From Bacteroidales bacterium (GTDB taxonomy: Bacteria > Bacteroidota > Bacteroidia > Bacteroidales > GCA-2748055): a stretch of 64,000 nt of DNA. The notes beneath the pieces are model-generated. The model was not told the origin of the DNA. It did not search any database and saw only the letters and a list, made by a program, of their open reading frames with translations. The stretch spans positions 54 to 64,053 of the forward strand of contig JAIOZM010000010.1 of the NCBI GenBank assembly GCA_021740585.1. Direction: 5' to 3'. This document shows, piece by piece, positions 48,467 through 64,000 of this stretch (its first letter is position 1; each line of letters starts with the position of its first letter). The translations under genes and the position numbers were made by a program.

Positions 48467-48468
48467 TG

Positions 48469-50019
48469 TTATTTAATTGTCTTTATTGATCCTTCAGGTA
48501 AATTAATTTTTTCACCGTTTATTCTATATTCTTTATCTTTTTTGTAGGTAATGATCATTTTCAGGTTTCCCAACTCGTCATACTTTTTCCAATTTCTTTC
48601 TCTGACACCCATTTCATAGAATCTTTCTTCCTTAATAACTCCATTTGGATAATAGAAAACATGTTTACCCTGAGCTAAACCCTGAATAAATTTACCTTCA
48701 AAGTGAATACTATTATCCAGATAATAATAGTTCCAGACGCCTTCCCTCAGACCTATAATGTACTTTCCTTTTTCAATATGATCGCCTGAAAAATAATACC
48801 ATTCTCCCTCTTTTTCACCATTAATAAAGTTTCCGGAACTAATTATTTCTCCATTTTCAGCATACTCAACCATTTTACCATCTTCTCTTCCGTTAAAATA
48901 GGATTCTTCCCTAAGAATATTACCTGAAATATAATACCATGTCCAAAAACCATCGGGAAGACCTGCTAAAAACTCACCTTCCTGTTCTTTATTTCCGTTT
49001 AAATAATAATAATTCCATAAACCCGATTTTTGATTATTTAAATAATTTCCCTTTGATCTGAGTTCTCCGGTAGGATAGTATTCCTTCCAGGTTCCAATTC
49101 TTACACCGGTTTCATTCAAAATACCCTCGGAAGTTAAAGTACCAAAATTGTCATAAATTTTTGAATTAACTACATTTCCTTTTCCATCATAATATCTGTG
49201 AACTCCCACCGGAATATTATTTCTGTAACTTCCCTGAAATATTAATTCTCCCGTATTGTTAAACTCGCGTTTAATATCCAAACTTTCCTGCTCCATTATT
49301 GCTTCCTGCTCTTCAATTACAGCACCTTTTTTATATTTGAGCATTAATACGAGAGCTCCTTTATCGTTGTATTCTTTGTAGAGACCATCCATTTGATTAT
49401 CGACATAATAAATTTCTTTATGAAGTTTACCGTTATCGAAATATTCTTTCCATATACCCTGCTTTTTTCCATCACCGTCTTTTCTGTTTACTATCTCTCT
49501 GGCAATTAACAGATTGTTTCGGTATTGCATAATAGTTATTAATTCTGCATTTGTATTGAATTCCTTTGCCTGACCATCTTTTTTCCCATCTTTATAATTA
49601 ATTTCACTTTGAATTGTTCCGTTATCGTAGAAATAAAAAGATTTTCCCTCCTTTTTATCGTTCAGATACAATTCCTGAGAAACAATAATGGGTTCGGAGT
49701 TGTATTTATAAGAGAAAGAATAACTGTATCCATTCTTTTTTCCCGACAAGTAATTTATTTTTTGATCTATTTCACCCTGACTATTGTAGAAGGTCCAGGT
49801 ACTATCCAATAGCATATTTCTCCGTAAACCCTCCGATTTAATAATCCCCGTTGGATAATATGAAATCCAATAGCCATCGGGCTTTCCATTCTTTAATATA
49901 CCTTCACTGGAAACCTGTCCATCGGGATAAAAAAATTGAGTAAAACCATCACTACTATTCTGTGAAAAGCTATAATTAATTATGAATAAGAGTATTACAA
50001 TATTTATAAAATATTTCAC
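48469..50019 (-). CDS. MORN-repeat (YwqK-like) protein, secreted or membrane-associated
   Basis: Signal-like N-terminus, then about 20 repeats of the G.W..Y..NG......Y..G..dG pattern. GTG start overlapping the nadA stop (GTGA). Confidence 0.7.
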
Positions 50020-51014
50020 TTCTTTTTAAATTTCTCTGTTAATTCCAACATTCTTATAATAGATCCTTCAGCTCTTTTTCTTATATTTTCCTCTACAACT
50101 ACCTCCGGCAGTTCATATTTAAGTGTATTATATAATTTTTTGAGAGTAATTAACCTCATAAACTTGCAATCGTTGCAGCCACAAGTGGAGTCTTTAGGAG
50201 GAGCTGCCAAAAATATTTTAGAAGGACTTTGTATTTTCATCTGATGTAAAATTCCCGATTCAGTGGCAACAATATATATATTAGCGCTATCTTTTATAGT
50301 AAATTTTAATAAATCTGAGGTTGAACCAATAAAATCAGAAACTATCAGAATTGGTTTTTGACATTCAGGATGAGCTATTATTTTAGCTTCGGGATTTTCT
50401 TTTTTCAAATCTAAAATTCTTTCCAGAGAAAAATCCTCATGTACATGACAAGCTCCATCCCAGATAATCATGTCTTCCCTGCCGGTTTGAGACTTTATAT
50501 AATTTCCCAAATTTCTGTCAGGAGCAAAGACAATTTTTTCAGTTTTCGGTAAGCTGTTAACAATATCTAATGCATTGGTTGAAGTACAAACTATATCGGT
50601 AAGAGCTTTAATATCGGCAGAAGTATTTACGTAAGAAATTACTGTATGATCAGGATATTTTTTCAAAAATTCTTCAAATTTATCAGCCGGGATTGATTCT
50701 GCCAAAGAACAACCCGCGTTCAAATCGGGTAATAAAATCTTCTTTTGGGGAGATAAAATTTTTGCTGTTTCTGCCATGAAATGTACACCTGCCATTACAA
50801 TAATATCTGCATTTGTTTTGGCGGCTTCCTGTGCTAATAGAAGACTATCACCAACTATATCGGCAATATCCTGAATTTCCCCTTCCTGATAAAAATGAGA
50901 AAGAATAATAGCATTTTTTTCCTTCTTCATTCTTTCTATTTCTTTTATCATATCTACAGATTTATCAACCTCTAAATCGATAAAACCCTTTTTTATTAAA
51001 TCTGTATTTTTCAT
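50016..51014 (-). CDS. nadA: quinolinate synthase
   Basis: ILSHFYQEGEIQDIADIVGDSLLLAQ, VHFMAETAKIL, CSLA... and HPEC blocks. 332 aa. Confidence 0.9.
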   Translation of the reverse strand: MKNTDLIKKGFIDLEVDKSVDMIKEIERMKKEKNAIILSHFYQEGEIQDIADIVGDSLLLAQEAAKTNADIIVMAGVHFMAETAKILSPQKKILLPDLNAGCSLAESIPADKFEEFLKKYPDHTVISYVNTSADIKALTDIVCTSTNALDIVNSLPKTEKIVFAPDRNLGNYIKSQTGREDMIIWDGACHVHEDFSLERILDLKKENPEAKIIAHPECQKPILIVSDFIGSTSDLLKFTIKDSANIYIVATESGILHQMKIQSPSKIFLAAPPKDSTCGCNDCKFMRLITLKKLYNTLKYELPEVVVEENIRKRAEGSIIRMLELTEKFKKK

Positions 51015-51493
51015 CTTACTTTATATTGTTTGATTATATACACAACATATTATTATTATATTATAAATTTAAATTTAATATGATGATAATAATAGTCTGT
51101 TAATATTGTTATTAAAATTTTCAAAAAAAATTGATATTTACATTATTAAAAGTTTAGGAACATTTAGTTAACAAAATTATAATTCAAATAGTATTGACAA
51201 TCATATTGTTTTGTAATTATTAACAAGTTGTTAGTATCAAGTGTTCTTTAAAAATAAAGCTAAATAAAACCAAAAAAATTGTTAATGTTTTGTTGAGGAT
51301 TTTGTCAAAGAAAATAAAAAATAAATTTTGTATTGTAATTTCAATTTTCTATTGTAATAATGGTTTTACAAGTCAAGTAAATATTATACAAAATTACATT
51401 ATTATAATTAACAAGTAATCAACAATACTTGTGTAAAAAATTAATACTTTCACATCCGTATTTATTTATCAATATATTGAAGAAAAATAAAAT

Positions 51494-51937
51494 ATGATTA
51501 CAGAAAAAATTGTTATTGCTTCCGATCATGCCGGCTATTTTTTAAAAGAGCAAATAAAGAAATATTTATCGAAAAAATTAATAGAATCTTATGATGTAGG
51601 TACTTATAGTTCAGATTCTTGCGATTATCCTGATTTTGCTCATAAACTGGCAGAAGAAATAGAAAAAGGTGCTTATAAATATGGAATATCCATTTGTGGG
51701 AGTGGCAATGGTATTAACATGACAGTAAATAAGCATCAAAAAATTCGTTCAGCTCTTTGCTGGAATGATGAAATTGCACAACTGGCAAGATTTCATAATG
51801 ATGCAAATATATGTTCACTTCCGGCCCGGTTTATTAGTGAGAAACAGGCATATACTATTATTGATATTTTTTTTAATACAGAATTTGAAGGGGGAAGACA
51901 TATTACCCGAATAAATAAAATACCCTTAAAGAAATAA
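51494..51937 (+). CDS. rpiB: ribose 5-phosphate isomerase B
   Basis: IVIASDHAGYFLKE..., DYPDFAHKLAE, ICGSGNGINMTVNK and RFHNDANICSLPARF. Confidence 0.9.
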   Translation: MITEKIVIASDHAGYFLKEQIKKYLSKKLIESYDVGTYSSDSCDYPDFAHKLAEEIEKGAYKYGISICGSGNGINMTVNKHQKIRSALCWNDEIAQLARFHNDANICSLPARFISEKQAYTIIDIFFNTEFEGGRHITRINKIPLKK

Positions 51938-52368
51938 TGATCTCCACCACAAGTAAATATGCAATACGGTCTGTGATTTATCTGGCGGTAAATAATGATA
52001 AAACCAAAACAGGTATTAAAAAGATTTCTAAAGAATTAGACATACCAGCTCCATTTTTAAGTAAAATTTTGCAAACCCTGGCAAAGCACAGGATCCTAAG
52101 TTCTACCAAAGGACCAAACGGCGGTTTTTCGCTTGGAATTGATTCAAAAGAGATTCATTTAATGGATATTGTTCAGATAATTGAAGGACTTGATAGCTTT
52201 GAAAAATGTGCTATTGGAGTAAAATATTGCAAAGAACAAGAAAATAAATGTGCACTTCACAAACAATATTCATCACTCAGGGAGGAGATGAAAAAACTAT
52301 TTAAATCGACTAATATTTACGATTTAGCATTGGAAATAGAGCAAAACAAGGTTTCTCTGTTTATTTAA
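51937..52368 (+). CDS. Rrf2-family transcriptional regulator (three-Cys motif, possibly Fe-S binding)
   Basis: N-terminal wHTH (SKYAIRSVIYLA...ISKELDIPAPFLSKILQTLAKHRIL). Cys motif is C-x6-C-x6-C (CAIGVKYCKEQENKC). The start shares one base with the rpiB stop (TAATG). Confidence 0.85.
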   Translation: MISTTSKYAIRSVIYLAVNNDKTKTGIKKISKELDIPAPFLSKILQTLAKHRILSSTKGPNGGFSLGIDSKEIHLMDIVQIIEGLDSFEKCAIGVKYCKEQENKCALHKQYSSLREEMKKLFKSTNIYDLALEIEQNKVSLFI

Positions 52369-52437
52369 GGAAGTCAAAGAACAACCAGCTTTTTTAAGTA
52401 AGGGAGATAAAGTTTTTAAATCGTGTAGCGGTAGTGG

Positions 52438-52821
52438 TTATGCATAAAAATTGGAAAACAATCGCCTAAACAAATAAAAGGCAGGAATTGCTGTTAAACT
52501 ACCTGCAAAATCGGCCAGTAAATCATATAATTCACCACTTCTCCCATCAATAAAGCTTTGAAAGACCTCTATCAATCCACCATAACTCACACAAAGAATC
52601 AAGGTAAGGAGAATCAGAGATGATTTATTATTGAATATTTTATGTAAATCATGCAGTAAAATAAAAGAAAGAAGACCATAAAGCATAAAATGAACCAGCT
52701 TGTCAACATGAGGAAAATTTAAAAAGCCGGATCCGGCAGAAGTGTTAATTGGAATCAGGCTTAGAGCCATTATAAGAATAGCTACAATTAAGGAAGGGTA
52801 AAATTTGCTTATAATTTTCAA
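52438..52821 (-). CDS. VanZ-family membrane protein
   Basis: Four TM segments and the DKLVHFMLYGLLSF motif typical of VanZ-like proteins. TTG start in the track. Confidence 0.6.
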   Translation of the reverse strand: MKIISKFYPSLIVAILIMALSLIPINTSAGSGFLNFPHVDKLVHFMLYGLLSFILLHDLHKIFNNKSSLILLTLILCVSYGGLIEVFQSFIDGRSGELYDLLADFAGSLTAIPAFYLFRRLFSNFYA

Positions 52822-52962
52822 GTTAATTATGTTTCAGATGTATAAGTAAGCAATGATATCAGATTGAATTTGTAAAATATAAATCACATCACAAATATAA
52901 TAAAATAAGAGTTTCATCAGCTTCAGCCCAGATAAATATTATGTTAAATAAGGTGGTTTTTA

Positions 52963-54093
52963 ATGGCAGGATTTTATGTACATATCCCCTTTTGCCGACA
53001 GGCTTGCAGGTACTGTGATTTTTATTTTACGGTTTCCTTGAAGTATAAAGACGAGCTCGTTGAGGCATTATTAAAGGAGATAAAGAATAAAAAGAAGCAA
53101 TTTCAAAATTATCAGTTCAACACCCTATATTTTGGCGGTGGCACACCTTCTGTTTTAAGCGAAATAGATATTAACAGAATAATAGAAGAGATAAAAACAC
53201 ATTATAATTTTGATTCGAAAGCCGAAATTACTCTTGAAGCAAATCCTGACGACCTTTCTGTTGAATACCTAAAAAATCTAAAATTGCTGGGGATTAATCG
53301 CCTCAGCATTGGAATACAATCCTTTCACGATCGGGATCTGAAGCTTATGCGTCGAAGTCACAGTGCAGAACAAGCAATAAGCTCTATTAAAAACGCACAA
53401 AATGCAGGAATTCAAAAGCTTACAATTGATCTTATTTATGGAATACCCGGAATGAGTTTTAGTGATTGGCAGGAAAACCTTGAAAAGCTTATTGAATTAG
53501 GAGTTCCGCACATTTCCGCTTATCATCTTACCTACGAACCGGGGACCGTTTTTGATCACTGGAGAAAAAAGAAGAAAATAATACCCATTGAAGAGGATTC
53601 CAGCCTGGAGCAATTCAAATATTTGATAGAACGAACCCGAAAAGAAGGCTTTCAGCATTATGAAATTTCTAATTTCGCCAGGGAGGGACATTTTTCCGAA
53701 CATAATAAAAATTACTGGAAGGGGATACCTTATGCAGGAGTAGGTCCTGCAGCTCATTCCTACGATGGAACAGCCCGATACTGGAATATTTCATCTGTAC
53801 AAAAATACATCAGCGAAAGTAAGTCCGATAGTTTTAATTATTCTGAAAAAGAGATGCTAGGTGTAAACGACCGGTATAACGAATACATTATGGTATCCTT
53901 ACGCACGATGTGGGGCATTAATACCGATAAAATTAAGCAATCTTTCGGTGAGGACTATGTTAGGTATACAGAGGATATAGCTTCAGGATTTTATAAAAAA
54001 GAGCTCTTAACAAAGAAAGGCAACGATATAAGGATAACAAGTCGGGGTATATTTTTGGCCGATCAGATAATCAGGGAGTTTTTCAGGGTTTGA
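52963..54093 (+). CDS. hemW: radical SAM heme chaperone HemW (HemN-like)
   Basis: YVHIPFCRQACRYCDF contains the CxxxCxxC radical SAM cluster motif. GGGTPS follows, then the HemN C-terminal domain. 376 aa. Confidence 0.85.
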   Translation: MAGFYVHIPFCRQACRYCDFYFTVSLKYKDELVEALLKEIKNKKKQFQNYQFNTLYFGGGTPSVLSEIDINRIIEEIKTHYNFDSKAEITLEANPDDLSVEYLKNLKLLGINRLSIGIQSFHDRDLKLMRRSHSAEQAISSIKNAQNAGIQKLTIDLIYGIPGMSFSDWQENLEKLIELGVPHISAYHLTYEPGTVFDHWRKKKKIIPIEEDSSLEQFKYLIERTRKEGFQHYEISNFAREGHFSEHNKNYWKGIPYAGVGPAAHSYDGTARYWNISSVQKYISESKSDSFNYSEKEMLGVNDRYNEYIMVSLRTMWGINTDKIKQSFGEDYVRYTEDIASGFYKKELLTKKGNDIRITSRGIFLADQIIREFFRV

Positions 54094-54285: not shown

Positions 54286-55173
54286 CTATTTAAGAGCGAA
54301 CTCAGACGATCCGATTAGTTTTCCGTTTTCAAACAATTCTATGATGTAATTACCACCAACGAGATCGCCGTTATTATCCCAAAAAATAGAAACAGGTACA
54401 TCGTTGTTTTCATAAATTACTTCACGGTTGGCGGAATAAGGCATTTCTTCGCCATTAACAATGATTATTGCGGGTTTGGGAGGACTTAACACAAGATTAT
54501 CGGGACGGATAAGCCTCAAATAAATCATTTTTGGACCCGGTTGGGTAACGCTATTTTTACGGAGGATAAAGTCGACACGAACTTTTTCAACCAGCTTAAA
54601 CCGGTTTGTATCTTTACTTCTTTTATTTAGTCCAACGCCCAAAATATTTGCCGCTACCAGAGTTTTTGCCTCATTGGTTATGGAGATTAATTCCTCTTTA
54701 TCTTCAGAAAGCTGTTTGTTAATAGTTTCAACCTTGGCAGTATGACTCCTAAGGGCCACATTTTCAACAATAAGTTCTTTATTCATTGTGTTTAAAGAAT
54801 CTATCTGAACGATATAAGATCTTAAAACCCCGCGAATGGTACCCAATTCTTTTTCGTAAGCCCTGATTTTCTGAGCATCACTTAAGCGTAATTTCAATAA
54901 ACGTTCAATTTTATCTTGTTGCATGGCAAGCTTAAGATTCATTGTATCGTTTTCAGTCATCAGGGAATCGTATTGCACGATAATACCCTTTAATTCAGAC
55001 TCGAGCGAATCTTTTTGGGAACTTATAAGACCAGAATATTCTTCCAGTTTAGCAATAACAGATTCGCTTTCTTTTTTCTGGGTATAAAATAAATAGCCGA
55101 TAACCATCAGGGCAATGGTCAAAACCACCAACAGGGTTATCAAATATGACAGGTTATTGTTTTTCTTTTCCAT
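54286..55173 (-). CDS. hypothetical membrane-anchored coiled-coil protein
   Basis: N-terminal TM (LSYLITLLVVLTIALMVIGYLFY), about 150 aa of heptad-like coiled coil, and a beta-rich C-terminal domain. No catalytic motif. Confidence 0.5.
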   Translation of the reverse strand: MEKKNNNLSYLITLLVVLTIALMVIGYLFYTQKKESESVIAKLEEYSGLISSQKDSLESELKGIIVQYDSLMTENDTMNLKLAMQQDKIERLLKLRLSDAQKIRAYEKELGTIRGVLRSYIVQIDSLNTMNKELIVENVALRSHTAKVETINKQLSEDKEELISITNEAKTLVAANILGVGLNKRSKDTNRFKLVEKVRVDFILRKNSVTQPGPKMIYLRLIRPDNLVLSPPKPAIIIVNGEEMPYSANREVIYENNDVPVSIFWDNNGDLVGGNYIIELFENGKLIGSSEFALK

Positions 55174-55415: not shown

Positions 55416-56045
55416 TTAGTTCCCCAGCAATTCCAAACCTTCAACCGCCGTGCTTCCGCTAGGAGTATTCAGTAATGCTTTTTGAAACAAAGATTTTGCT
55501 TCACGGGTTTTATTGAGCTTGAGCTTTGTCCAGGCAAGCATAGTAAGACCTTCGTAATCGAATGGATAGAGGTTAACCACTTTTTCAAAATATTTTTCAG
55601 CCTTCATATAATCCTCTCTTCCGTAGTAAATAAGACCGATGCGATGCATAACAATGCTATTATTCGGACTTATTTCCAGAATTTTTTCATACTGCTCAAG
55701 TACTTTACTGTAATTTCCTATGGCAGAAGCCGGATAGGCGTATCCCAGACGGGCTTCAATAGAATAAGGCATAAGGTCGATGGCCTTACTGTAATACGCA
55801 ATGGCTTCTGTAAATCTACCCGCCATATAACTAAGATATCCTAAGCGCAAATTAATTTCGTAAGAATTTTCCATATAAACAGTCTTAAGACTATTAATAC
55901 CCTCGGCATAATTTCCCGAAGCAGCAAGTATGTAGCTTTGCTGGAATGCCTTAACCTGTTCAGTAAATGTTTGAGCTTTTAATCCGGATACAACCAGAGC
56001 CAGCGCAAGAATAAGTAATGTTTTTTTTGCTTTTAAAATTTCCAT
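55416..56045 (-). CDS. secreted TPR-repeat protein (last gene of the PqqD operon)
   Basis: Signal peptide MEILKAKKTLLILALALVVSGLKAQ followed by 4-5 TPR units (e.g. AIAYYSKAIDLMPYSIEA, AEKYFEKVVNLYPFDYEG). Its start overlaps the upstream gene by 13 nt. Confidence 0.7.
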   Translation of the reverse strand: MEILKAKKTLLILALALVVSGLKAQTFTEQVKAFQQSYILAASGNYAEGINSLKTVYMENSYEINLRLGYLSYMAGRFTEAIAYYSKAIDLMPYSIEARLGYAYPASAIGNYSKVLEQYEKILEISPNNSIVMHRIGLIYYGREDYMKAEKYFEKVVNLYPFDYEGLTMLAWTKLKLNKTREAKSLFQKALLNTPSGSTAVEGLELLGN

Positions 56046-57376
56046 GATATTTCCGCTATTATTGTTAATGCTTTAGATTCTATTTTATTTAAATCGGTAG
56101 TACGCATTTCTGTAAGATCAAAATAATTGTTGTAATATTCTAAATAAGAGGCTATTAGTCTAATATTTGTTTTCTGTCCGGCGTGAATTAAAGAAAAATC
56201 ATACCGGGAAGTTTGGGTATCATTACTGTTAAAAATACTAAAGCCGTCGTGGTCGGTAAAATTTTTAATTTCCCCGCCTTGATACTTTGCCTCAAACCAT
56301 ACATTTCCAAAGGTTTTAAATCCCAACTCCTGTTTAAAACCGGTATAGTTTTGCACTTCACCCTTGTCGTCTTCCGACACCATTAATAATGAGCTTACAG
56401 TATAAAGATTAAGATTTCCAAGAGGGTAAAACACCAGGCGCCCGTCTTTCTGAAATTGTTTTTTAAAATTAAGGCTTGAGTATGAAAGGCCCCCGCCCAG
56501 ATTAAAAAGACCTAAATATTTATAGGCAGAAATGCGTGAGGATGAAAAATTTCCGGCAAAACCGGGAATATATGTTGCCGAGGCGCCACGTCCAAAATAA
56601 TTGGCAGGAAATGAATAACGAATGAAATGAGAGGAGGCGGTTACAGTAAGCCCGTCGGCCGGCGTAAGGCTAAGTCCGCCATAATACTGTATTTGATTAA
56701 GACCGGTAATTTCACTGCTAATTAAATTATTGTCATAAAGAGAATAATAGTAAGAATTTTTATTTAAAAAAGAACCACCATGAATGAGCCTCAGATTATC
56801 AGAAATATCGTGAACTAATTTAAAATTCACAAATCGATAATTGAGGGTCAGGAGCTGTTCGCCATTGGATGGTCCGCTATTGTTGAATTCTACAAAAAGA
56901 GAGGCAGGATCTTTAACCGGGTTATAAAAATAAACCGCATCAATGCTAAACGAACTAAGGTCTTTTTTCTTTAAATCGACGGCCTTTTTTAAATAATATT
57001 CATTGTTGTAATAATATCGGTAAGCATCTGCTTGCTTGCCGGCAAACAATTTTGAGTAGTAAATATATTCCTTATTAATTTTTTCAATATCATTTAATTT
57101 TTCAGCTTTTTTAAAGTGCTTTTCAGCCAGCATGAATCTGTGTTTTTCGTAATAGGCAATACCCGTTCTCATACGCAAATAATAGTAATCAATATCGTTT
57201 TTGTAGGCCGTACGGGTGGATTTGATCAGTCCATTCCATTCTTCATAAAGGTATTGCTGATAGCTTAAGCTGTCAAGATAAACAAACGAAACGTTCTTTT
57301 GAGCAAAAGATCTTTGTGCCCAAATAAGAATGAATAAAGTCAGCCAATATTTACTGTATTTCAGCTTCAATTTCAT
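56033..57376 (-). CDS. putative outer-membrane protein (N-terminal TPR-like helices plus C-terminal beta-barrel)
   Basis: Signal peptide ...LFILIWAQRSFAQ. A helical ~130 aa is followed by alternating beta-strand patterns. It ends ...IIAEISWKF with a terminal Phe. Its start overlaps the upstream gene by 26 nt. Confidence 0.5.
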   Translation of the reverse strand: MKLKLKYSKYWLTLFILIWAQRSFAQKNVSFVYLDSLSYQQYLYEEWNGLIKSTRTAYKNDIDYYYLRMRTGIAYYEKHRFMLAEKHFKKAEKLNDIEKINKEYIYYSKLFAGKQADAYRYYYNNEYYLKKAVDLKKKDLSSFSIDAVYFYNPVKDPASLFVEFNNSGPSNGEQLLTLNYRFVNFKLVHDISDNLRLIHGGSFLNKNSYYYSLYDNNLISSEITGLNQIQYYGGLSLTPADGLTVTASSHFIRYSFPANYFGRGASATYIPGFAGNFSSSRISAYKYLGLFNLGGGLSYSSLNFKKQFQKDGRLVFYPLGNLNLYTVSSLLMVSEDDKGEVQNYTGFKQELGFKTFGNVWFEAKYQGGEIKNFTDHDGFSIFNSNDTQTSRYDFSLIHAGQKTNIRLIASYLEYYNNYFDLTEMRTTDLNKIESKALTIIAEISWKF

Positions 57377-59537
57377 TTAGTTTGGTTTTCATTTTAAACT
57401 TAATTTTACCCGGTGAAATTGTGATTGTAAAATCCTTATTCCCTATTTCTTTTTTAGCCACAAGATTTTTAACAACAGATTTAAAAATTAATTCATTGGG
57501 TTGGTATGGATTGTCAATAGAAATCAGTTTTGAAGTATAGGACGATTTAAGAAAGAGGTAAAAAGGAGCGATAAAATCCTGGAGGCTTAACCATGGAAAC
57601 TTAAAAGTAGCGTTCTGTGGCAGCTCATCGGATAGCTCAACATCCTGATACGTTGACTGTAAAACCTTATAAAATCCCAGATAAAAATGATACAATACCG
57701 ATTTTCGGGAGCCCTCAAAATGGGTAAAATATAATAGATTCCCATCATTTACGTAATATGCAATCGATTTACTTTCAGGATCGTAGATGTAAGAATGATT
57801 GTATGCGTTGGTATATATTTCCCAGGTCGCCTCTCCCGGAATGCGATTTACAGTAAACCTGACCTTAAGTTTTTGTCCGGGAACAAAGGCAAAGCTTTGC
57901 CTCATCAAAATACTGGTATCAATGTTGCTTATCAGTTGGTTTAACAAAGGATTATCAAAAGTTTTAAATAGGTACCCCGATTCATTATTCACCATAAAAT
58001 AGGAAAAAGGATAATTTATGGTTTCGGAGCCAATATAAGGTGTTGCCTGAAATTGAAAATGAAGATGTGGATACGGACTTCTTCCCGAATTTCCTGCTTC
58101 GCCCACTTTTTGACCGCACACAACATTATCCCCAACTTTTACTGTTATTGATCCTGGTTTCAGGTGATTTAAACTGGAATATAAATACTCGGCGTGCTTA
58201 ATAATAACAGAATTACCCCAATTGGAAGTGAGGTTTGCCTTTCCTATCTCATTATCGGGAATATTATCTACAATTTCTTCAATAGTTCCGGCTCCCGGGG
58301 AAATAACAGATTTCCCGTAGCAGTAATAATCTTGCGGATAATAACCCTCATTATTGTATTGCAATCCCTTTTCATCCAGTACCACAAAATCCCAGGCAAA
58401 ACGCCAGTCTTCTTTGTGGGTATATTCACCCTCATGACCCTGAGAAACCGTCCATTTTCCATAAAAAGGAAGCTTAAAAGGGATCAGGTTTCTATGAAAG
58501 GCGTTAATTTTCTGATTTTGGTAGGAGTAGAGATTGTTTTCAGGTAAACCCTGTTGCACCAGTACTTCAGTAAGGTCCTCACCCGGACTAACGCGCCATT
58601 TTAATGCATAAAGAAACATAATAACCACTATATTAAAGGGCAGGGAATAAACCGATAGATTAAAATGGGCAAATATTTTGGATAAGCTAAGGGTTACCAG
58701 TGTTACCAGTGGAATAAGCAACAAAAGCCAGATAAAGGTTTTTTTGGAAGGAATCATAAAATATCCCCCGATAGCGATTGCTGTAAGGATGTAGTTAAAA
58801 CCAATATATGTATAACTTAGCTGATAAATATCACCTCCCAATAAAGTGTAAAAAAGGTAGGCGATATAAAAGCCATACAATGAAAGTAAAAAAGCAATTC
58901 GGGAATACATCAGAATACCAATGCTTATGAATATTCCCGCCAGGGCTTTAAACTGGAAGAAAATGGCGCCAATGGAGTTAAAGTAAATCTGTAAGGATTT
59001 ATTAAGAGGAATATCTTGTATTGATTCATAAAACGAAACGAGTTTTGCCCCCCCCAGACCATACAATTTATTTAAAGTGTAAATACCCCTTTCACTTATG
59101 CCAAGAGTTTCAAAACTACCCGATGAAAGCATTATTGTCCATAGTCCGAATAAAAAGGGAATGGATAAATAAGGCAGGGCATATTTTTGAAGAATTCCCT
59201 TAAAAAGGGTAACAAAGAAAAGGGTTAAAATTGACGTAGCCACCACGATGAATAAAAGCTGTATGTTAGCCTGAAAGTAATAGCCAACACCCAGTCCCAC
59301 CAACAAAGAATTAAAACCATACAAACCTTTTTCGACCTCTTTACGGTTAAATCCGAGTCCTATAGCGGTTAAATTTGCCACCATAACCGAAATAAATCCG
59401 GCTATTCCCGAATTCGGATCAATCATACTAACCAAAATAAGAATAATAGCAAAGCTTTGGTTGGTAGCAAAGAAAACCTGGGAATAGCTGTTAAGAATTC
59501 CCTTTATAAGTTCATCAGATGGTGGTAATTTACGCAT
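57351..59537 (-). CDS. urea-transporter-like (UT family) channel fused to an M23 metallopeptidase domain and an unknown C-terminal domain
   Basis: The UT-like halves read ILNSYSQVFFATNQS...GLYGFNSLLVGLGVGYYF and ...YIGFNYILTAIAIGGYF. The M23 region reads QGHEGEYTHKEDWRFAWDF ... VIIKHAEYLYSSLNHL ... GNSGRSPYPHLHFQF. The last ~210 aa have no motif I recognise. Confidence 0.7.
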   Translation of the reverse strand: MRKLPPSDELIKGILNSYSQVFFATNQSFAIILILVSMIDPNSGIAGFISVMVANLTAIGLGFNRKEVEKGLYGFNSLLVGLGVGYYFQANIQLLFIVVATSILTLFFVTLFKGILQKYALPYLSIPFLFGLWTIMLSSGSFETLGISERGIYTLNKLYGLGGAKLVSFYESIQDIPLNKSLQIYFNSIGAIFFQFKALAGIFISIGILMYSRIAFLLSLYGFYIAYLFYTLLGGDIYQLSYTYIGFNYILTAIAIGGYFMIPSKKTFIWLLLLIPLVTLVTLSLSKIFAHFNLSVYSLPFNIVVIMFLYALKWRVSPGEDLTEVLVQQGLPENNLYSYQNQKINAFHRNLIPFKLPFYGKWTVSQGHEGEYTHKEDWRFAWDFVVLDEKGLQYNNEGYYPQDYYCYGKSVISPGAGTIEEIVDNIPDNEIGKANLTSNWGNSVIIKHAEYLYSSLNHLKPGSITVKVGDNVVCGQKVGEAGNSGRSPYPHLHFQFQATPYIGSETINYPFSYFMVNNESGYLFKTFDNPLLNQLISNIDTSILMRQSFAFVPGQKLKVRFTVNRIPGEATWEIYTNAYNHSYIYDPESKSIAYYVNDGNLLYFTHFEGSRKSVLYHFYLGFYKVLQSTYQDVELSDELPQNATFKFPWLSLQDFIAPFYLFLKSSYTSKLISIDNPYQPNELIFKSVVKNLVAKKEIGNKDFTITISPGKIKFKMKTKLNEIEAEIQ

Positions 59538-59543
59538 AAAAGA

Positions 59544-60890
59544 TTATTTAAGATGATCGGGAAGCCTTTCCGGTCCGCGTATAGAATCAAGATCTTCTTT
59601 TTCTCTTATTACATGGGTAATGCCATTGGTATCGATCATTACAATTCGTGGTCGATAGGTAATAAACTGCATCCACTGTGTCATATTATAGGCTCCAATT
59701 CTTCTGATTACAAAGAGGTCGCCTTTTTTCATGATAGGGAAATTAATAGCTTCCCTGAGTACATCGATGTTCATACAGAGAGGTCCGTAAATAGTCGATT
59801 CTTCTGTTTGAGAGGAAACCGGTTGTGCGGGCATAATTTCATGTTCGTACCAGAAGGAGGTGAAAAGTAAATTCACTCCCACATCGGCTACGGTGGCCCG
59901 ACGGCCGTCAGATAATCGTTTATTTGCCAGAATGGTTCCTGCCAAATAGCCGGCATCATCAATAAGGGCTCTTCCGGTTTCGAGAATCAGAAGAGGCATA
60001 TTTTCTTTATTAATTGCCGATGAAAGCAGGGCAGAGGTGATGGCATCTGCATAGTTCTCCATGGAAGGAATGGTCTCATAACCGGGAAGATAAGCGCCCT
60101 TAAGGGTATTTCCGGAGGCAAATCCGCCGCCCATATCTATGTATGCAATATTGTGGTTGTATTTGCTTTTTAGATTTACTGCCAGATCTGCTAATTTGGA
60201 TGCAGCAACTTTATAAGCATTGGCAGAAAGCATATACGTACCAATGTGAGTATGAAGTCCTTCCAGCTCCAGGTTTTCAATAGACATTATCCGGTTTAGT
60301 ACATCCCAGGCATCCCCATTTTCGTAATTGAAACCAAAGCGATCCCATTTAGGATAAATTCCGGTATCCATATTTACACGAATGGCAACGCGAGCTTTTT
60401 TGCCAATTTTTTTTGCGATTTCAATAAGAGAATAATATTCATCAAAGTGATCGATATGAATTAGAGATTCATTTTCGATGGCTAATTTTAAATCGGCATC
60501 GGATTTATCGGGACCGTTAAATATAATTTCTCTACCCGAAACGCCATTTTTAAGTGCTTTTGCATATTCAAATCCCGATACCACCTCTGCCCATGATCCT
60601 TCCTGGTGAAAGGTTTTGCAAACGGCATCGAGGTAATTGGTTTTATAGGACCAGGAGAATTGAACTTTTGGGTATTTTGACTTAAAGATTTGTTCCGTGC
60701 TTCTGAATTTTTCGCGTATGGTTTGTTCAGAAATAATATAAAGAGGCGAACCGTATTTTTCAACCAGATCTTTTATGGGCACCCCATCGATAGTGGTAAG
60801 AACTTCAAAACCGGTTTTCATACCAAATTTCCCGGGCATTCCGGCGCTTACTTTTTTTATTACCGGGCGTTCAAATAGTAACTTTTCCAT
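59544..60890 (-). CDS. fold-type III PLP-dependent decarboxylase (Orn/DAP/Arg decarboxylase family)
   Basis: PLP-Lys block is FSWSYKTNY. Other blocks are HTHIGT, DMGGGF, ETGRALI and GPLCMNIDVL. 448 aa. Confidence 0.8.
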   Translation of the reverse strand: MEKLLFERPVIKKVSAGMPGKFGMKTGFEVLTTIDGVPIKDLVEKYGSPLYIISEQTIREKFRSTEQIFKSKYPKVQFSWSYKTNYLDAVCKTFHQEGSWAEVVSGFEYAKALKNGVSGREIIFNGPDKSDADLKLAIENESLIHIDHFDEYYSLIEIAKKIGKKARVAIRVNMDTGIYPKWDRFGFNYENGDAWDVLNRIMSIENLELEGLHTHIGTYMLSANAYKVAASKLADLAVNLKSKYNHNIAYIDMGGGFASGNTLKGAYLPGYETIPSMENYADAITSALLSSAINKENMPLLILETGRALIDDAGYLAGTILANKRLSDGRRATVADVGVNLLFTSFWYEHEIMPAQPVSSQTEESTIYGPLCMNIDVLREAINFPIMKKGDLFVIRRIGAYNMTQWMQFITYRPRIVMIDTNGITHVIREKEDLDSIRGPERLPDHLK

Positions 60891-60900
60891 GATAATTATT

Positions 60901-61953
60901 TTATAATTCCCCTTTTACGGAGAGAGTTTCATATTTTTTAAGATCGCAAATAATATCGTAAGAATACCTTACGAACATAATTCCCTTTTTGTAATCGGCG
61001 AGAGGTTTTACATCCATTCCCATAGCAAGCATTACCAAAGCTTCGGGAATGTTTTGTCCGGCTCCTACTGCCAGGTAAACCCAGGCAGGAATACGGGGAT
61101 TTATTTCAATAATATAATATTCGTTGGAGTTGGTGCGGATAAGCTCCAGCTCCATTCCACCGCGCCATTTCGTCTGACTAATAATTTTGTTGGTAATTTC
61201 TATTAGTTTAGGATCGTCGATGGTAATTCCGCCCCAGGCCTTTCCTTTGTCGGTGATGTATTGTTTTCTCATAGCGACAGCGCCGATGGTATTACCGTTT
61301 CCATCGCCCAGAGCCACCACATTTACCTCGGTACCCTTTACGAATTCCTGCAAAATGACGGGCAGTCCCCACTTAGCCGAGATTTTATTGAAGTTGCTAC
61401 GAATTTGTTCCTCACTATAGGCTACATAGGCATCATAAAATTTCCCCTTTACCATTAAAGGATAGTCGAAGGGTTTTTCCTTATCGAACTTCACAATATC
61501 GTTATGAGAAACAATATCGATGCTTTCCGGAACACCAACGCCGTATTTTTTACCGTACTCAGGCAGGTTTGATTTATTCCTGTCTTCATACTGTTCCAGA
61601 GTAGGCAGGAAAGTTTGAATTCCTATAGCTTTGAGTTTTTCAGAAGCCTTCATAAAGGTGAAGAGTTCGGCATCGAAATTAGGAATTATAAGATCGAATT
61701 TTTCTGTGGCATGAATGTATTCTATCCTCTCCAGAAAAACATCAGTTCCTTCAGAGGGATAAGGAATCATATAGGTTTTATCCAGAAGACCCTCCATATA
61801 TATGCCGGGTTCCAGATTTTCGTATGCCAATCCGATAATACGGGCATTAAATACCGTAGAATCTTTAATACCTCTGATAACCGGAACACCCGGTCCCGGG
61901 TTATCGGTATTATTCAGACCGGTAATTCCTATGGTTATGTCTATTTTATTCAT
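60901..61953 (-). CDS. ATP-grasp domain carboxylate-amine ligase
   Basis: PLMVKGKFYDAY (ATP Lys region), LQEFVKGTEVNV (hinge) and MELELIRTNSNEYYIIEINPRIPAW (E-x-N Mg site). 350 aa. Confidence 0.8.
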   Translation of the reverse strand: MNKIDITIGITGLNNTDNPGPGVPVIRGIKDSTVFNARIIGLAYENLEPGIYMEGLLDKTYMIPYPSEGTDVFLERIEYIHATEKFDLIIPNFDAELFTFMKASEKLKAIGIQTFLPTLEQYEDRNKSNLPEYGKKYGVGVPESIDIVSHNDIVKFDKEKPFDYPLMVKGKFYDAYVAYSEEQIRSNFNKISAKWGLPVILQEFVKGTEVNVVALGDGNGNTIGAVAMRKQYITDKGKAWGGITIDDPKLIEITNKIISQTKWRGGMELELIRTNSNEYYIIEINPRIPAWVYLAVGAGQNIPEALVMLAMGMDVKPLADYKKGIMFVRYSYDIICDLKKYETLSVKGEL

Positions 61954-62025
61954 CTGAAAGTAATTGATTTATTTTGCCAGATAGGAAGATCCTAATTGGC
62001 TTATTTGTTAGCTTAGATATCATTC

Positions 62026-62277
62026 TTAGGATCTTTCATTTTCAAGAAGATGATATTGATTTAGCATAGAAGTAAAATCGAAATAATAACGTTCAAAATT
62101 CGAAGCGTCGATGTCGTATTTTTCTATTACAATTTCCTTGATTTCATCAAGAGATTTTTCACTTCGGAGGTAGTTGAATATTTCCAATCCCACAGGATTA
62201 AAAGTAAAGGATTCTCCGGTTGAGGGATCGAAGAGAAATCCCGACTCGCTGATGGCAATATTTCTTTTTATTTTCAT
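62026..62277 (-). CDS. PqqD-family small peptide-binding protein (RRE-like)
   Basis: 83 aa. SGFLFDPSTGESFTFNPVGLEIFNYLRSEKSLDEIKEIVIEKYDID...FERYYFDFTSMLNQYHLL fits the PqqD pattern of a beta-hairpin followed by a winged-helix. First gene of the operon. Confidence 0.65.
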   Translation of the reverse strand: MKIKRNIAISESGFLFDPSTGESFTFNPVGLEIFNYLRSEKSLDEIKEIVIEKYDIDASNFERYYFDFTSMLNQYHLLENERS

Positions 62278-62427
62278 TTTGAATGAATTTTGTGCTTTTT
62301 CAGATTACAAAGATGAGACCAATAAAACAATAGTTTTTCATAAAATTAGGGAAAAGATTTATATAATTCGGAATATAGACTCAGGTATTCCGTGTATGAA
62401 ACCAGGTATTATATAACTAAACCTTGA

Positions 62428-62498
62428 TGCGCTGAGTGCCTTCGCCAAAGGCTTCGGGCCGCCGGCGAAAGCTTTGTGGAGGAAAGGCTTGAGGAGGG
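62428..62498. other. GC-rich island with three AAAG(G)CTT-centred repeats and a small hairpin inside an AT-rich 755-bp non-coding region
   Basis: GCGCTGAGTGCCTTCGCCAAAGGCTTCGGGCCGCCGGCGAAAGCTTTGTGGAGGAAAGGCTTGAGGAGGG. The hairpin GCCTT-CGCCA-AAGGC is at 62438-62452. Function unknown. Confidence 0.4.
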
Positions 62499-62968
62499 AA
62501 TAATCTTCATTGATTTTTAAATAATTTCAGACAAAAACATATTAAAAACAATTTATTCTGGCTCTCCAGCCTGTATGGCTCATACATTTTTTATTCAGAG
62601 TATCATGTGGCACACATTCCTTGCCTGTCGGCATGCGGGTTCATAGACACCCAATAAAAATGTTTCAGTTACTCAACTTTTAAATCCAAATAGTAGATAG
62701 AATCACTTTTTTTATCGTTTTCAATATGCGCAAGCCCGAGCGATTATGCAATTATGCCGAAACCTCAAAAGCCCTTTCTATAAATACCAGTTATTCCAAA
62801 TTCCCCTCTCCCTCCTCGTAATTTAAAAAACCCTCCTCAGAAAGTCAATACAAAAGCCTAAATTAAAATCATTATAAATTACCGGTTGTTAGTCAAATAC
62901 TTCGTGAAAACAGTGTACAAATTTCTTCTGAAAAATATTAATAGGAAAAAACCAAAATGTATCACCCG

Positions 62969-63014
62969 AGTCTTCTTCTGCAATTATCCGGAAGGCGGAA
63001 AAGCAGAGGAGACT
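62969..63014 (+). promoter_or_regulatory. imperfect long hairpin in the leader of the LuxR-solo gene
   Basis: AGTCTTCTT(C)TGC pairs with GCAGAGGAGACT: 12 bp, two G-U pairs, one bulged C, around a 21-nt apical region containing CCGGAAGGCGG. It ends 19 nt before the ATG at 63033. Confidence 0.3.
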
Positions 63015-63032
63015 TTACTTAAAATCTGAATT

Positions 63033-63254
63033 ATGGAGTATAACACACATTTAAACGAACCCATACAGCTAAGTCCGCGCGAAAAGCAGGTGCTGGAGCT
63101 TCTTGCGAGGGGATTAAGCTGTGAAGAAATTGGTTGCCAGCTGTGCATTTCTGCACACACTGTAATATTTCATCGAAATGGTTTAAAGCAAAGACTTAGA
63201 GCCAAAAACAGCTGTGAATTGATTTATTATGGCTGTAAACTAAAAATAATATGA
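63033..63254 (+). CDS. LuxR/GerE-type HTH protein, DNA-binding domain only (LuxR solo)
   Basis: LSPREKQVLELLARGLSCEEIGCQLCISAHTVIFHRNGLKQRL. 73 aa with no receiver or ligand-binding domain. Confidence 0.85.
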   Translation: MEYNTHLNEPIQLSPREKQVLELLARGLSCEEIGCQLCISAHTVIFHRNGLKQRLRAKNSCELIYYGCKLKII

Positions 63255-63276: not shown

Positions 63277-63464
63277 GACAGCAATACTATTTAGTTTTAA
63301 ATTGCCTTCATGATAAATCAAAGCATTTACCCTGTTTAAAATGAATAGAATTTATGGTAAAAAGAAAGGTTAAGGTTTTTACATTCTCATCTAAGAACTA
63401 AAAAACCAAATCGTTTTTTAAAATCAATGCGTCAAAACAAACAAACTATATAAAAACGAAATTT

Positions 63465-64000
63465 ATGAAACAATTAATTTATATTTTAATGCTTGCAGCA
63501 TTTACATTTATGGCAAATGCGCAAATTAAAGTTGCTTCCAATAACAGTATTGGGATAGGTACTGAAAATCCGATAAGCAAACTTAGTGTTGGGTCAGATG
63601 GAGATACTTATAACAAAGTCTATATCAGGAATGATAATACAGCCGCAAATCAAAAAGGAATGACAGTAGTTCAAGCACCGTCAATTTCAGGAAATCAAAG
63701 AGGTATACTTACCGCTATTTCGCAAGGCTCAGGTGGCGCCAAATTATTTGGAATATATTCTTCTTCAATTAGATCAACACCTGAAAGCAATGGTAGAACC
63801 TATGGAATTTGGGGAGCAGGAGGGAATGCTACAACAGGCTATAATCATGGAGTGTATGGAGAACTGTCCGGATCAAATTATGGTGCTGCTATTTTCGGAG
63901 CAACCCCAGGTAAGGGCGAAACTTATATAAATAATATATATGCGGGGTACTTTAGGGGTAAGGTATTTATTGAGGATAGAGTGGGCATTATGACCACAAC
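63465..64000 (+). CDS. secreted Gly-rich repeat protein, N-terminal part; open to the right edge
   Basis: ATG at 63465, absent from the track because no stop lies in the window. My translation is MKQLIYILMLAAFTFMANAQ (signal) IKVASNNSIGIGTENPISKLSVGSDGD...GIWGAGGNATTGYNHGVYGELSGSNYGAAIFGA.... The IGIGT.NP..KL.V motif recurs in tail-fibre-like surface proteins. Confidence 0.6.
   Translation, partial: MKQLIYILMLAAFTFMANAQIKVASNNSIGIGTENPISKLSVGSDGDTYNKVYIRNDNTAANQKGMTVVQAPSISGNQRGILTAISQGSGGAKLFGIYSSSIRSTPESNGRTYGIWGAGGNATTGYNHGVYGELSGSNYGAAIFGATPGKGETYINNIYAGYFRGKVFIEDRVGIMTT

Follow-up and report, generated by a model that had tools for sequence, protein, structure and literature searches.

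A six-gene operon of Bacteroidota and allied lineages linking a PqqD-like protein, an ATP-grasp ligase and a decarboxylase to a urea-transporter-fold pore and outer-envelope proteins

What does a bacterium make, and where does it send the product, when it encodes a PqqD-like protein, an ATP-grasp ligase and a pyridoxal phosphate (PLP) decarboxylase head to tail with a pore of the urea transporter (UT) family and two proteins of the outer envelope? This question is raised by an operon of six genes, here called g1 to g6, in a stretch of 64,000 nucleotides (the window) from a Bacteroidales bacterium (GenBank assembly GCA_021740585.1, contig JAIOZM010000010.1, positions 54 to 64,053 of the forward strand). 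All six genes lie on the minus strand, running from 62277 to 55416, with junctions that are first gaps of 72, 10 and 6 nt and then overlaps of 26 and 13 nt, a spacing that makes a single transcript with translational coupling likely. Scans for sigma-70 promoters and terminators gave scores no better than shuffled background. A preliminary description made from the letters alone had reported these open reading frames (ORFs), their coordinates and their junctions exactly as they stand in the ORF list, and the motifs that it quoted (EINPR, LQEFVKGTE, SYKTN, HTHIGT, DMGGGF, GPLCMNID and a terminal ISWKF) are all found in the translations. We argue here that the operon probably marks an unstudied route for making a small amine-type molecule and moving it across the cell envelope. 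More specifically, we tentatively favour a system in two halves that would span the envelope: a ligate-then-decarboxylate module assembled by a RiPP recognition element (RRE; RiPPs are peptides made on the ribosome and modified after translation), and a small-solute pore bearing an amidase that would release the product.

The identity of the six proteins is well supported. Counting only Pfam matches above the family gathering score, g1 belongs to the PqqD family (PF05402; 30.3 bits against 23.4, E 5.5e-7) and g2 to the ATP-grasp enzymes (ATPgrasp_Ter, 39.8 against 29.1 bits; ATP-grasp_3, 34.9 against 23.2), g3 matches Orn_Arg_deC_N (97.9 bits) and Orn_DAP_Arg_deC (45.8 bits), g4 combines UT (212.1 bits) with Peptidase_M23 (48.5 bits), and g6 carries several tetratricopeptide repeat (TPR) families. 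This profile check upholds the domain assignments of the preliminary description; g5 has no Pfam match, and its assignment is supported by the fold of its AlphaFold2 (AF2) model. In a scan against NCBIfam, no curated cut-off was reached by any of the six.

The preliminary description had also called for a test of synteny. Run across related loci, this shows that the gene set occurs together well beyond Bacteroidota. The order PqqD, ATP-grasp, decarboxylase, UT::M23, (barrel), TPR recurs in 12 genome loci, nine of which have the run from PqqD to UT::M23 intact; they belong to Bacteroidales, Chitinophagales, Flavobacteriales (the cultured Thermaurantimonas aggregans LA), Draconibacterium, Ignavibacteriota and a metagenome-assembled genome (MAG) of Thermodesulfovibrionales. 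We also analyzed 80 metagenome loci, where a gene was counted only if the contig has enough flanking DNA for its presence to be assessed. The UT::M23 gene is accompanied by the PqqD gene in 48 of 54 assessable loci, by the ATP-grasp gene in 49 of 55, by the decarboxylase gene in 60 of 65, by the outer membrane (OM) barrel gene in 60 of 61 and by the TPR gene in 52 of 53, i.e. by its partners in 89-98% of cases. The six-gene arrangement is therefore far beyond chance, and the last two counts (~98%) support the earlier proposal that the channel is wired to an OM barrel and a periplasmic TPR partner. The UT+M23 architecture itself makes up at least 3,295 clusters at 90% identity among 8,000 candidates scored, annotated at source only as 'urea transporter'.

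A core of PqqD, ATP-grasp, decarboxylase and UT is also present in Ignavibacteriota, Nitrospirota, Magnetococcales and high-GC lineages, in all in at least five bacterial lineages, with a variable composition. A Magnetococcales MAG has four genes only (L023: PqqD, ATP-grasp, decarboxylase, UT::M23). A locus of 70% GC (L018) encodes a secreted TPR protein, a PqqD::ATP-grasp fusion, a degenerate second ATP-grasp, the decarboxylase and a UT::SIR2::GNAT protein, and another (L022) a TPR lipoprotein, PqqD, a tandem ATP-grasp, the decarboxylase and UT::SIR2. In L025 the UT carries a different, zinc-ribbon tail and is accompanied by an alpha/beta hydrolase. Three loci (L019-L021) have PqqD and an ATP-grasp::decarboxylase fusion with no UT protein; a 637-aa neighbour of this fusion was considered as a hidden UT and rejected (hhalign probability 0.15). 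A HMMER scan with the ATP-grasp retrieved 3,290 relatives at 50% clustering, whose Pfam annotation revealed a natural PqqD::ATP-grasp fusion (P0430), a natural fusion of ATP-grasp with an Orn/DAP-type (DAP, diaminopimelate) decarboxylase (P0368), and many tandem ATP-grasps of ~710 aa. Homology, synteny and these natural fusions indicate that the ligase, the decarboxylase and the PqqD-like protein are functionally coupled. Judged from these sequences, the conserved unit is PqqD, ATP-grasp and decarboxylase, which usually adjoins a UT-fold protein with an exchangeable C-terminal domain and a periplasmic TPR protein.

The only solved structure significantly related to g1 is TbiB1, an RRE that binds the leader of a lasso peptide precursor (5v1u; E 1.4e-3, near full length). 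In most genome loci the g1 gene lies right beside the ATP-grasp gene or overlaps it (spacing of about -5 to +50 nt), and in 49 metagenome loci the two are a median of 8 nt apart. What might such a protein bind? In the preliminary description it was a small peptide-binding guide, and the PqqD/RRE fold stands, but we found no co-encoded peptide that it could guide. Clustering by blastp-short of all ORFs of 12-75 aa located between -1.5 and +1.2 kb around the operon, in 15 loci, brought out no conserved precursor gene, and the only groups obtained were spurious ones that lay antisense or out of frame; in L004 and L005 there are merely ~75-80 nt ahead of the PqqD gene. The possibility that the PqqD-like protein is itself a carrier of the LysW type, acting through its C-terminus, was rejected, as the C-termini are acidic but variable.

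A candidate ligand is present in the decarboxylase. The first 29 residues of g3 form an arm that is missing from FigC and LysA, whose alignments begin at g3 residues 30-34. It has the consensus M-E-K-x-x-[Y/F]-E-[R/K]-P-x-I-K-[K/R]-...-G-M-P-x-K-F-G. The motif [Y/F]xxPx[I/V] is found in the arm in 77 of 78 loci, and residues K3, P9, I11, K21 and G23 are near-invariant among 74 distinct sequences, with E7 also conserved. In a tight form the motif has just two occurrences in the six frames of the whole window. Discrete lasso-type RREs recognise [Y/W]xxPx[L/V/I/F/A], which the arm motif fits (PMC13381572), and the wider RRE group that includes PqqD binds motifs of the W/Y/LxxP type (PMC12710340). 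The likeliest ligand of the PqqD-like protein would then be the conserved N-terminal arm of g3 itself, which would explain both the absence of a precursor peptide and the fact that the three genes of the enzyme half travel together and become fused.

The catalytic part of g3 suggests a substrate amino acid tethered by its side chain. Its nearest solved relatives are FigC (7kh2, 217.6 bits), followed by LysA/DAP decarboxylases (~150) and BtrK (105). It remains well below the cut-offs of the NCBIfam model for FslC (242 bits, cut-off 500) and of the LysA equivalog TIGR01048 (224 bits, cut-off 297.9), and in the alignment its PLP lysine, Gly loop, Cys loop and remaining catalytic motifs are in place. 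FigC/FslC is an N-citrylornithine decarboxylase, and FigC, SbnH, AcsE, MccE, BtrK and DAP decarboxylase (DAPDC) form one clade, whose members other than DAPDC decarboxylate amino acids tethered by their side chain to citrate, to a peptidyl-nucleotide or to a carrier protein (PMC7857480). By sequence similarity, g3 is closest to the decarboxylases for tethered amino acids (FigC, BtrK), and the ligate-then-decarboxylate logic put forward in the preliminary description fits these relatives. The citrate-binding residues R387 and N389 of FigC are replaced by Q and M in g3, which argues for a substrate other than a citryl conjugate. The family motif at this site, GAYN.TQWMQFI, is kept in every variant system, so that the substrate is probably the same across the family.

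The ligase is similarly constant. Residues K169, Q202, E209, E268, E270, E283, N285 and R287 of g2, the last three belonging to the EINPR motif, are invariant in 26 sequences and can be assigned putative catalytic or nucleotide- and Mg-binding roles. In a profile search its best matches among Protein Data Bank (PDB) entries were the ATP-grasp of the large chain of carbamoyl-phosphate synthetase (CPS; 9e-14), the structural-genomics entry 2pn1 and urea amidolyase-type modules. The best 120 of more than 6400 clusters at 90% identity are all at least 67% identical to g2, and this high conservation favours a fixed substrate over a variable peptide. Identity of the decarboxylase is 57-65% across Bacteroidota orders and in Ignavibacteriota, and 46% in the Nitrospirota locus.

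These data bear on the possibility that the operon is a RiPP pathway, in which the RRE would bind the YxxP leader of an unlinked precursor, the ATP-grasp (by isopeptide formation or amino-acid addition) and the decarboxylase would modify it, and M23 would cut off the leader, the UT serving mainly as membrane anchor or co-exporter in the fashion of the PCAT peptidases. The membership of g1 in the RRE family and its similarity to TbiB1 speak for such a pathway, as does the PqqD::ATP-grasp fusion; cleavage of Gly-Gly-type bonds by M23 enzymes also recalls the removal of double-glycine leaders. Moreover, the ATP-grasps of graspetide pathways do modify peptides (PMC8939145). However, we think it unlikely: beyond the missing small ORF and the tight spacing at L004 and L005, both enzymes are conserved to a degree that is unusual in RiPP systems, a PLP decarboxylase of the g3 fold requires a free alpha-amino acid moiety, the UT pore cannot let a peptide through, and the variants replace M23 with SIR2 or GNAT, neither of which is a leader peptidase.

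The AF2 model of the membrane protein g4 (pLDDT, the predicted local distance difference test, 82.6) was matched by Foldseek to UT-B and dvUT at TM(target) 0.77-0.84, and to LytM-type M23 domains. In the pore, the positions equivalent to Q(Pa)-T(5a)-Q(Pb)-T(5b) of dvUT, the hydrogen-bond ladder that conducts urea in UTs (PMC11589576), are occupied by Q20, S125, Q195 and S298; the ladder of g4 thus reads Q20-S125-S298-Q195 (Q-S-S-Q), with the Gln pair kept and both Thr changed to Ser. Across 32 homologues Q20, S125 and Q195 do not vary and the conservation of S298 exceeds 90%, and the LPxxSxPF and SLPFN motifs and two GFN motifs also align with dvUT. With the Q-S-S-Q ladder and the GFN motifs kept, the pore looks functional; its score against the urea-transporter equivalog TIGR03441 is 146 bits, where the cut-off is 274.6. 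A periplasmic loop (residues 143-185) has several invariant residues, and the TPR proteins could plausibly dock there.

Several observations make a cytoplasmic location of the M23 domain the most likely. Characterised UTs have the Pa helix, with its Gln, in the urea pocket on the cytoplasmic side and Pb in the extracellular pocket (PMC11589576), a topology that, with the inverted repeat, places both termini in the cytoplasm. There is no hydrophobic segment beyond residue 313 of g4, and hence no extra transmembrane helix before M23, and K313 and R315 are invariant. The strongest hint is that the M23 tail is interchangeable with SIR2 or SIR2+GNAT in the variant systems, and these need NAD and acetyl-CoA. 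The putative metal-binding and catalytic residues H374, D383, H458, H491 and H493 of the M23 domain are invariant in 32 close homologues and also in 11 sequences spanning Bacteroidota, Ignavibacteriota, Nitrospirota and Magnetococcales. The domain is therefore most likely to be read as a putative intracellular amide hydrolase under the pore rather than as a wall hydrolase. Amide or amine groups are the targets of M23, SIR2 and GNAT alike: in the cross-links of peptidoglycan, M23-type enzymes cleave amides to side-chain amines, while N-epsilon-acyl-lysine is what sirtuins cleave. The C-terminal beta-rich domain that follows has no match in Pfam or among PDB sequences, and no Foldseek match of its own; the Ignavibacteriota and Nitrospirota UT::M23 proteins have ~700 aa, and their alignable part stops near residue 620-640.

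In L018 (7233-9344) and L022 (13544-15217) the UT domain is fused to an apparently intact sirtuin, with the motifs GAGVSTE.G.PD.RS, QNVDGLH and HG and the zinc-ribbon cysteines, and the L018 protein also bears a GNAT acetyltransferase. We found no description of a UT-sirtuin architecture.

The same tails suggest a reversible protein modification, where the ATP-grasp and the decarboxylase would write an amine-terminated, aminoacyl-derived mark on Lys or Glu, possibly of the arm or of the channel's own cytoplasmic domain, M23 or SIR2 would erase it and GNAT would cap it, gating the pore or signalling. A lysine deacylase and an amine acetyltransferase are indeed fused to the UT pore in the variants, K21 and E7 of the arm are conserved, varied regulators flank the loci, and ATP-grasp protein modifiers such as RimK and the tubulin ligases are well known. 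Nevertheless, we found no candidate target, a PLP decarboxylase in a purely regulatory mark is without precedent, and the OM barrel and periplasmic TPR protein, present in ~98% of Bacteroidota loci, are hard to fit with cytoplasmic regulation alone, so that this explanation too seems to us an unlikely one.

Concerning these outer-envelope proteins, the AF2 model of g5 (pLDDT 90.6) has a periplasmic TPR-like helical domain of three or four hairpins (residues 31-129) and a 14-strand OM beta-barrel (residues 140-446) that closes on ISWKF, with a terminal aromatic residue. Its best fold matches in Foldseek are, at modest TM-scores, FadL (~0.4-0.5), porins and other OM barrels, and its 92 detectable relatives are all unnamed. 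The 14-strand barrel is specific to Bacteroidota and is absent from the Ignavibacteriota, Nitrospirota and Magnetococcales loci. The last gene, g6, starts with a signal-peptide-like N-terminus (MEILKAKKTLLILALALVVSGLKAQ); the high-GC variant systems likewise have, at their flanks, TPR proteins that bear a signal or lipoprotein leader.

A barrel and a UT pore could also carry traffic inwards. A urea- or amide-like compound, or an amine, would enter through them, be captured by the CPS-like ATP-grasp and be processed, as a conjugate, by the M23/SIR2 domain and the decarboxylase. UT channels are bidirectional and those of bacteria normally import urea, FadL-like 14-strand barrels are uptake channels, and CPS and urea amidolyase-type modules are among the best PDB matches of g2. 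However, the resemblance to CPS is generic to the PRK12767 family, neither urease nor allophanate hydrolase, biotin carrier or any other catabolic partner is conserved in the loci examined, and an ATP-grasp with a clade-2 decarboxylase is biosynthetic in every characterised case (PMC7857480); we regard import and assimilation as a slim prospect. Finally, remodelling of the cell wall by a periplasmic, UT-anchored M23 endopeptidase with the TPR and OM proteins, the enzymes making a modified stem-peptide precursor (e.g. by decarboxylation of the DAP residue or addition of a diamine), is very improbable even though M23 domains are typically peptidoglycan hydrolases or activators, g3 is related to DAP decarboxylase, TPR and OM partners are present and a membrane acyltransferase (HGSNAT/Acyl_transf_3) occurs in or near the operon in six loci, because the SIR2 and GNAT domains that replace M23 cannot operate in the periplasm, the UT termini are cytoplasmic in characterised homologues with K313 and R315 invariant and no membrane segment ahead of M23, and no Mur-type ligase or other wall gene is linked.

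Returning to the favoured system in two halves, its steps can be proposed as follows. The PqqD-like protein would dock on the [Y/F]E[R/K]PxI motif of the g3 arm and so bring ligase and decarboxylase together; by analogy with BtrI-tethered glutamate and N-citrylornithine, the arm might also be a swinging-arm carrier, with K21 or E7 as candidate tether points. Between a carboxylate and an amino acid tethered by its side chain the ATP-grasp would form an amide bond, yielding an intermediate of the N-omega-acyl-diamino-acid type or of the gamma/beta-linked Glu/Asp type, from which the decarboxylase would strip the free alpha-carboxylate to leave a terminal primary amine. A trimer-type UT pore would carry the amide hydrolase as a cytoplasmic tail (M23 here, SIR2 or SIR2+GNAT in other phyla), which would cut the amide and so set free, right at the pore mouth, a small product that is an amine or an amide. 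Export would then proceed through the pore, its periplasmic loop, the TPR protein and the TPR-barrel, across the periplasm and the OM.

We infer the substrate, the product, the binding, the direction of flow and every chemical step, and several observations weigh against the scheme. UT::M23, barrel and TPR genes occur with no enzyme genes immediately upstream in ~10% of metagenome loci, so the enzyme and envelope halves are separable; as the L019-L021 type has the enzymes without any UT protein, their coupling is frequent and not obligatory. The YxxPxI-type motif is short, and the arm could be a mere structural element of the decarboxylase. The most distant variants do not keep the Q/S ladder: the Nitrospirota locus has R at Pa, and Magnetococcales has A and S. 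In the M23 domain the first His of the canonical HxxxD is H, F or Y (F in the window), and zinc would have to be bound by the invariant H374, nine residues upstream; the sidedness of the domain is itself drawn from homology and domain swaps. To our knowledge UT pores pass only urea-sized neutral solutes, for which protonated amines would be atypical substitutes, and a cycle of ligation, decarboxylation and hydrolysis on a simple amino acid would be energetically wasteful barring extra steps or a special product. All considered, the two-half scheme is a tentative proposal. The broader claim, that it represents a new class of trans-envelope 'make-and-release' machine, with a leader-armed enzyme, a ligase and decarboxylase assembled by an RRE, a swappable amidase on a UT-type pore and hand-over to TPR and barrel proteins, is possible but doubtful.

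The positions of these genes and domains, and of the features around them, are collected in Table 1.

Table 1. Positions in the window of the operon genes, their domains and neighbouring features.
Feature	Position	Strand	Basis
g1, 83-aa PqqD-like RRE protein	62026-62277	-	Pfam, PDB match, gene adjacency, fusion
g2, 350-aa ATP-grasp ligase (ATPgrasp_Ter / PRK12767 'CPS-like' type)	60901-61953	-	Pfam, NCBIfam matches
g3, 448-aa alanine-racemase-fold PLP decarboxylase, FigC/DAPDC/BtrK clade	59544-60890	-	Pfam, PDB matches
g3 N-terminal arm, aa 1-29	60804-60890	-	Motif F6-E-R-P-V-I11 (60858-60875) and K21-F-G
g4, 728-aa UT::M23 membrane protein	57351-59537	-	ORF list, Pfam
g4 UT domain, aa 1-340, urea-transporter-fold pore	58518-59537	-	Pfam UT 1.2e-62, AF2, Foldseek
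g4 M23 metallopeptidase-like domain, aa ~355-500, predicted cytoplasmic	58038-58475	-	Pfam M23 1e-12, Foldseek
g4 C-terminal beta-rich domain, aa ~505-728	57354-58025	-	AF2 pLDDT mostly 88-95
g5, 447 aa: signal peptide, TPR-like domain, OM barrel	56033-57376	-	AF2 model, Foldseek
g6, secreted 209-aa TPR protein	55416-56045	-	Pfam TPR families, signal-peptide-like N-terminus
Conserved ~90-nt block, candidate promoter / 5' UTR (untranslated region)	62278-62369	-	80.6% over 98 nt with L002
HemN/HemW-type radical SAM	52963-54093	+	Downstream block
VanZ-like	52438-52821	-	Downstream block
Rrf2	51937-52368	+	Downstream block
RpiB	51494-51937	+	Downstream block
NadA	50016-51014	-	Downstream block
516-aa MORN-type repeat protein, GTG start	48469-50019	-	Downstream block
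339-aa ORF, at the RuvB position of L014, L016, L017	47447-48466	-	Downstream block

Upstream of the operon, the ~90-nt block next to g1 is the only conserved part of 800 nt compared with the closest relative (L002), and the rest of 62278-63032 has no counterpart there. A riboswitch or structured leader that might name a ligand was considered and rejected, since the window has no Rfam match and nothing but this block is conserved; tRNA genes and Rfam families were sought throughout the 64 kb and none reached threshold. A GC-rich perfect hairpin (GCTTTCGCCGGCGGCCCGAAGCCTTTGGCGAAGGC; 62438-62472, minus strand) lies ~160 nt upstream of the PqqD start, within a spacer that is otherwise rich in AT. 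The hairpin has no second copy in the window and no U-run behind it; it is not conserved in L002, and its folding z-score is a modest -2.1. Further out, at 63033-63254 (plus strand), lies a 73-aa ORF that consists of a GerE/LuxR helix-turn-helix alone. Its counterparts in L014 and L016, which stand upstream of the operon on the same strand, are GerE regulators of 198 aa, and it matches them in their C-terminal third only (residues ~124-187). The copy in the window is truncated and in inverted orientation, and neither the hemerythrin gene nor the AraC gene of those two loci is present, which leaves ~750 nt upstream of the operon free of ORFs. The regulatory region thus seems to have been rearranged. 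At ~63462-64000 (plus strand) a gene begins that codes for a secreted protein (N-terminus MKQLIYILMLAAFTFMANAQ...) and runs off the end of the window.

On the other side, 242 nt after the operon, lies g0 (54286-55173, minus strand), coding for 295 aa with an N-terminal transmembrane segment and a long coiled coil, whose homologues carry DUF8428/DUF8429. It was rejected as a seventh member, being present in 5 of 40 assessable metagenome loci and only where wider synteny is kept, i.e. in the close lineage. The block that follows (47447-54093) has the same order in L014, L016 and L017. It includes a radical-SAM gene, which qualifies the earlier statement that no such enzyme is present: there is none in the six ORFs, but this one lies 1.3 kb away, on the opposite strand, and is linked to the operon within the close lineage only.

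Other loci have accessory genes that are not in the window. Fifteen encode a secreted protein of ~260 aa with a C-terminal sorting domain of the type IX secretion system (T9SS), usually right behind the TPR gene, and in two cases between the ATP-grasp and decarboxylase genes; its N-terminal domain is conserved and unassigned (e.g. L012:4805-5584, L013:14171-14962, L053:2258-3040). The HGSNAT/Acyl_transf_3 acyltransferase mentioned above is another such gene, and L004 and L005 have an IF-2B/MtnA-family protein between the decarboxylase and UT::M23 genes. These genes, too sporadic to build on, hint that surface proteins and amine acylation may be connected with the system. A lone ATP-grasp paralogue, 44% identical (L024:8001-9056), has no PqqD, decarboxylase or UT gene beside it; its context is of the Bacteroidota type (PorZ-like, YfhO, GcpE).

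Why should this system be studied? It is common, old and nameless, and a new small metabolite of many environmental Bacteroidota probably lies behind it. Its function, once known, would correct the annotation as 'urea transporter', 'carbamoyl-phosphate synthase-like' or 'diaminopimelate decarboxylase' that its components wrongly receive in Bacteroidota genomes. The system also offers a test of whether RREs organise ordinary enzymes and a route to other cargo of UT-family pores, and the natural swaps of M23, sirtuin and GNAT domains, together with the gene fusions, are direct experimental handles. If the make-and-release machine exists as proposed, RREs would recognise full-length enzymes besides RiPP precursors, and bacterial UT channels would carry cargo other than urea. 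There would also be a new small molecule widely made in Bacteroidota and allied phyla, which could be a signal or an envelope building block, or, given the recurring T9SS-tailed protein, the amine acceptor for surface attachment of T9SS cargo.

How does the operon compare with known systems? The preliminary description could match it to no described pathway, and our searches agree: NCBIfam cut-offs are not reached, PADLOC has no match for any of the six proteins, which also rejects a known anti-phage defence system, and full-text literature searches retrieved no description of the operon, within a coverage that did not extend to the amidoligase survey of Iyer et al. 2009. A 2026 survey on the evolution of UTs lists the UT::M23 domain combination by itself and gives neither a context nor a function for it (PMC12998343).

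Among biosynthetic systems, the BtrI/BtrJ/BtrK module of butirosin (Bacillus circulans) likewise combines an ATP-grasp with an alanine-racemase-fold decarboxylase, which acts there on an amino acid tethered to a small protein, BtrI (87 aa), close in size to g1; here the two enzyme genes are adjacent, or fused as in P0368. However, g1 has a PqqD/RRE fold and none of the six proteins has a PP-binding domain, which makes thioester chemistry impossible, and the module is tied to a UT pore, TPR proteins and an OM barrel rather than to an aminoglycoside context. The citryl-amino-acid decarboxylases of siderophore pathways that do without a nonribosomal peptide synthetase (NIS pathways; FigC/FslC, SbnH, AcsE, and PvsA/PvsE of vibrioferrin) follow the same ligate-then-decarboxylate logic on a side-chain-linked amino acid, as in FigA/FigC-type pairs, but there is no IucA/IucC-type NIS synthetase here, the citrate ligands of FigC are replaced, and neither a TonB-dependent receptor nor a siderophore exporter is conserved. 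As for LysA, g3 differs in its sub-equivalog score, its extra arm and its different C-terminal substrate motif.

Among the systems built on PqqD-like proteins, the PQQ (PqqA/D/E and a protease) and mycofactocin (MftA/B/C/E) pathways share the logic of a PqqD-like chaperone, a modifying enzyme, a peptidase in the operon and release of a small molecule. They differ in having a radical-SAM/SPASM enzyme and a precursor gene, and in that the modifying enzymes here are an ATP-grasp and a PLP decarboxylase and the peptidase is fused to a membrane pore; PqqA, PqqB, PqqC and PqqE were not found, leaving the PqqD-like gene alone. The lasso B1 RREs (TbiB1, FusB1), which read a YxxPxL leader motif, are matched here by a relative of TbiB1 and a conserved [Y/F]xxPxI motif, but this motif stands at the N-terminus of a 448-aa enzyme and not in a short precursor, and the B2 transglutaminase-like protease and the Asn-synthetase-like cyclase are absent from the operon and the related loci examined. 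More generally, none of the six ORFs encodes an RRE-dependent RiPP maturase (radical SAM/SPASM, YcaO, LanB/C/M, lasso cyclase or a graspetide ATP-grasp that modifies a precursor), and the ATP-grasp is of the ATPgrasp_Ter/CPS-like type.

In the envelope half, g4 shares with the UT/SLC14 urea channels (dvUT, UT-B, Yut) the fold (TM(target) ~0.8), the signature motifs and the ladder Gln pair, and differs in its two ladder Ser, its below-cut-off score, the fusion to M23 and a beta domain (or to SIR2/GNAT) and the lack of a urease context. Unlike M23 enzymes of the LytM type, which work on peptidoglycan outside the cytoplasm, its M23 domain follows the last UT helix on what is predicted to be the cytoplasmic side. 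The TPR-plus-barrel pores (PgaA, BcsC, AlgK/AlgE, Slam) resemble g5 and g6 in logic only, as a periplasmic TPR scaffold with an OM beta-barrel; g5 has 14 strands against 16-18, no polysaccharide synthase is present, and there is no match to the DUF560/Slam barrel model, only a sub-threshold TPR_Slam match to g6. The PCAT exporters, which have the ABC and C39 domains lacking here, also compare in logic only, as a cytoplasmic hydrolase placed on the conduit that takes its product. Since a defining feature of each of these families was looked for and found to be absent, we rate the operon, whose function is read from its sequence, as standing outside the known kinds of system.

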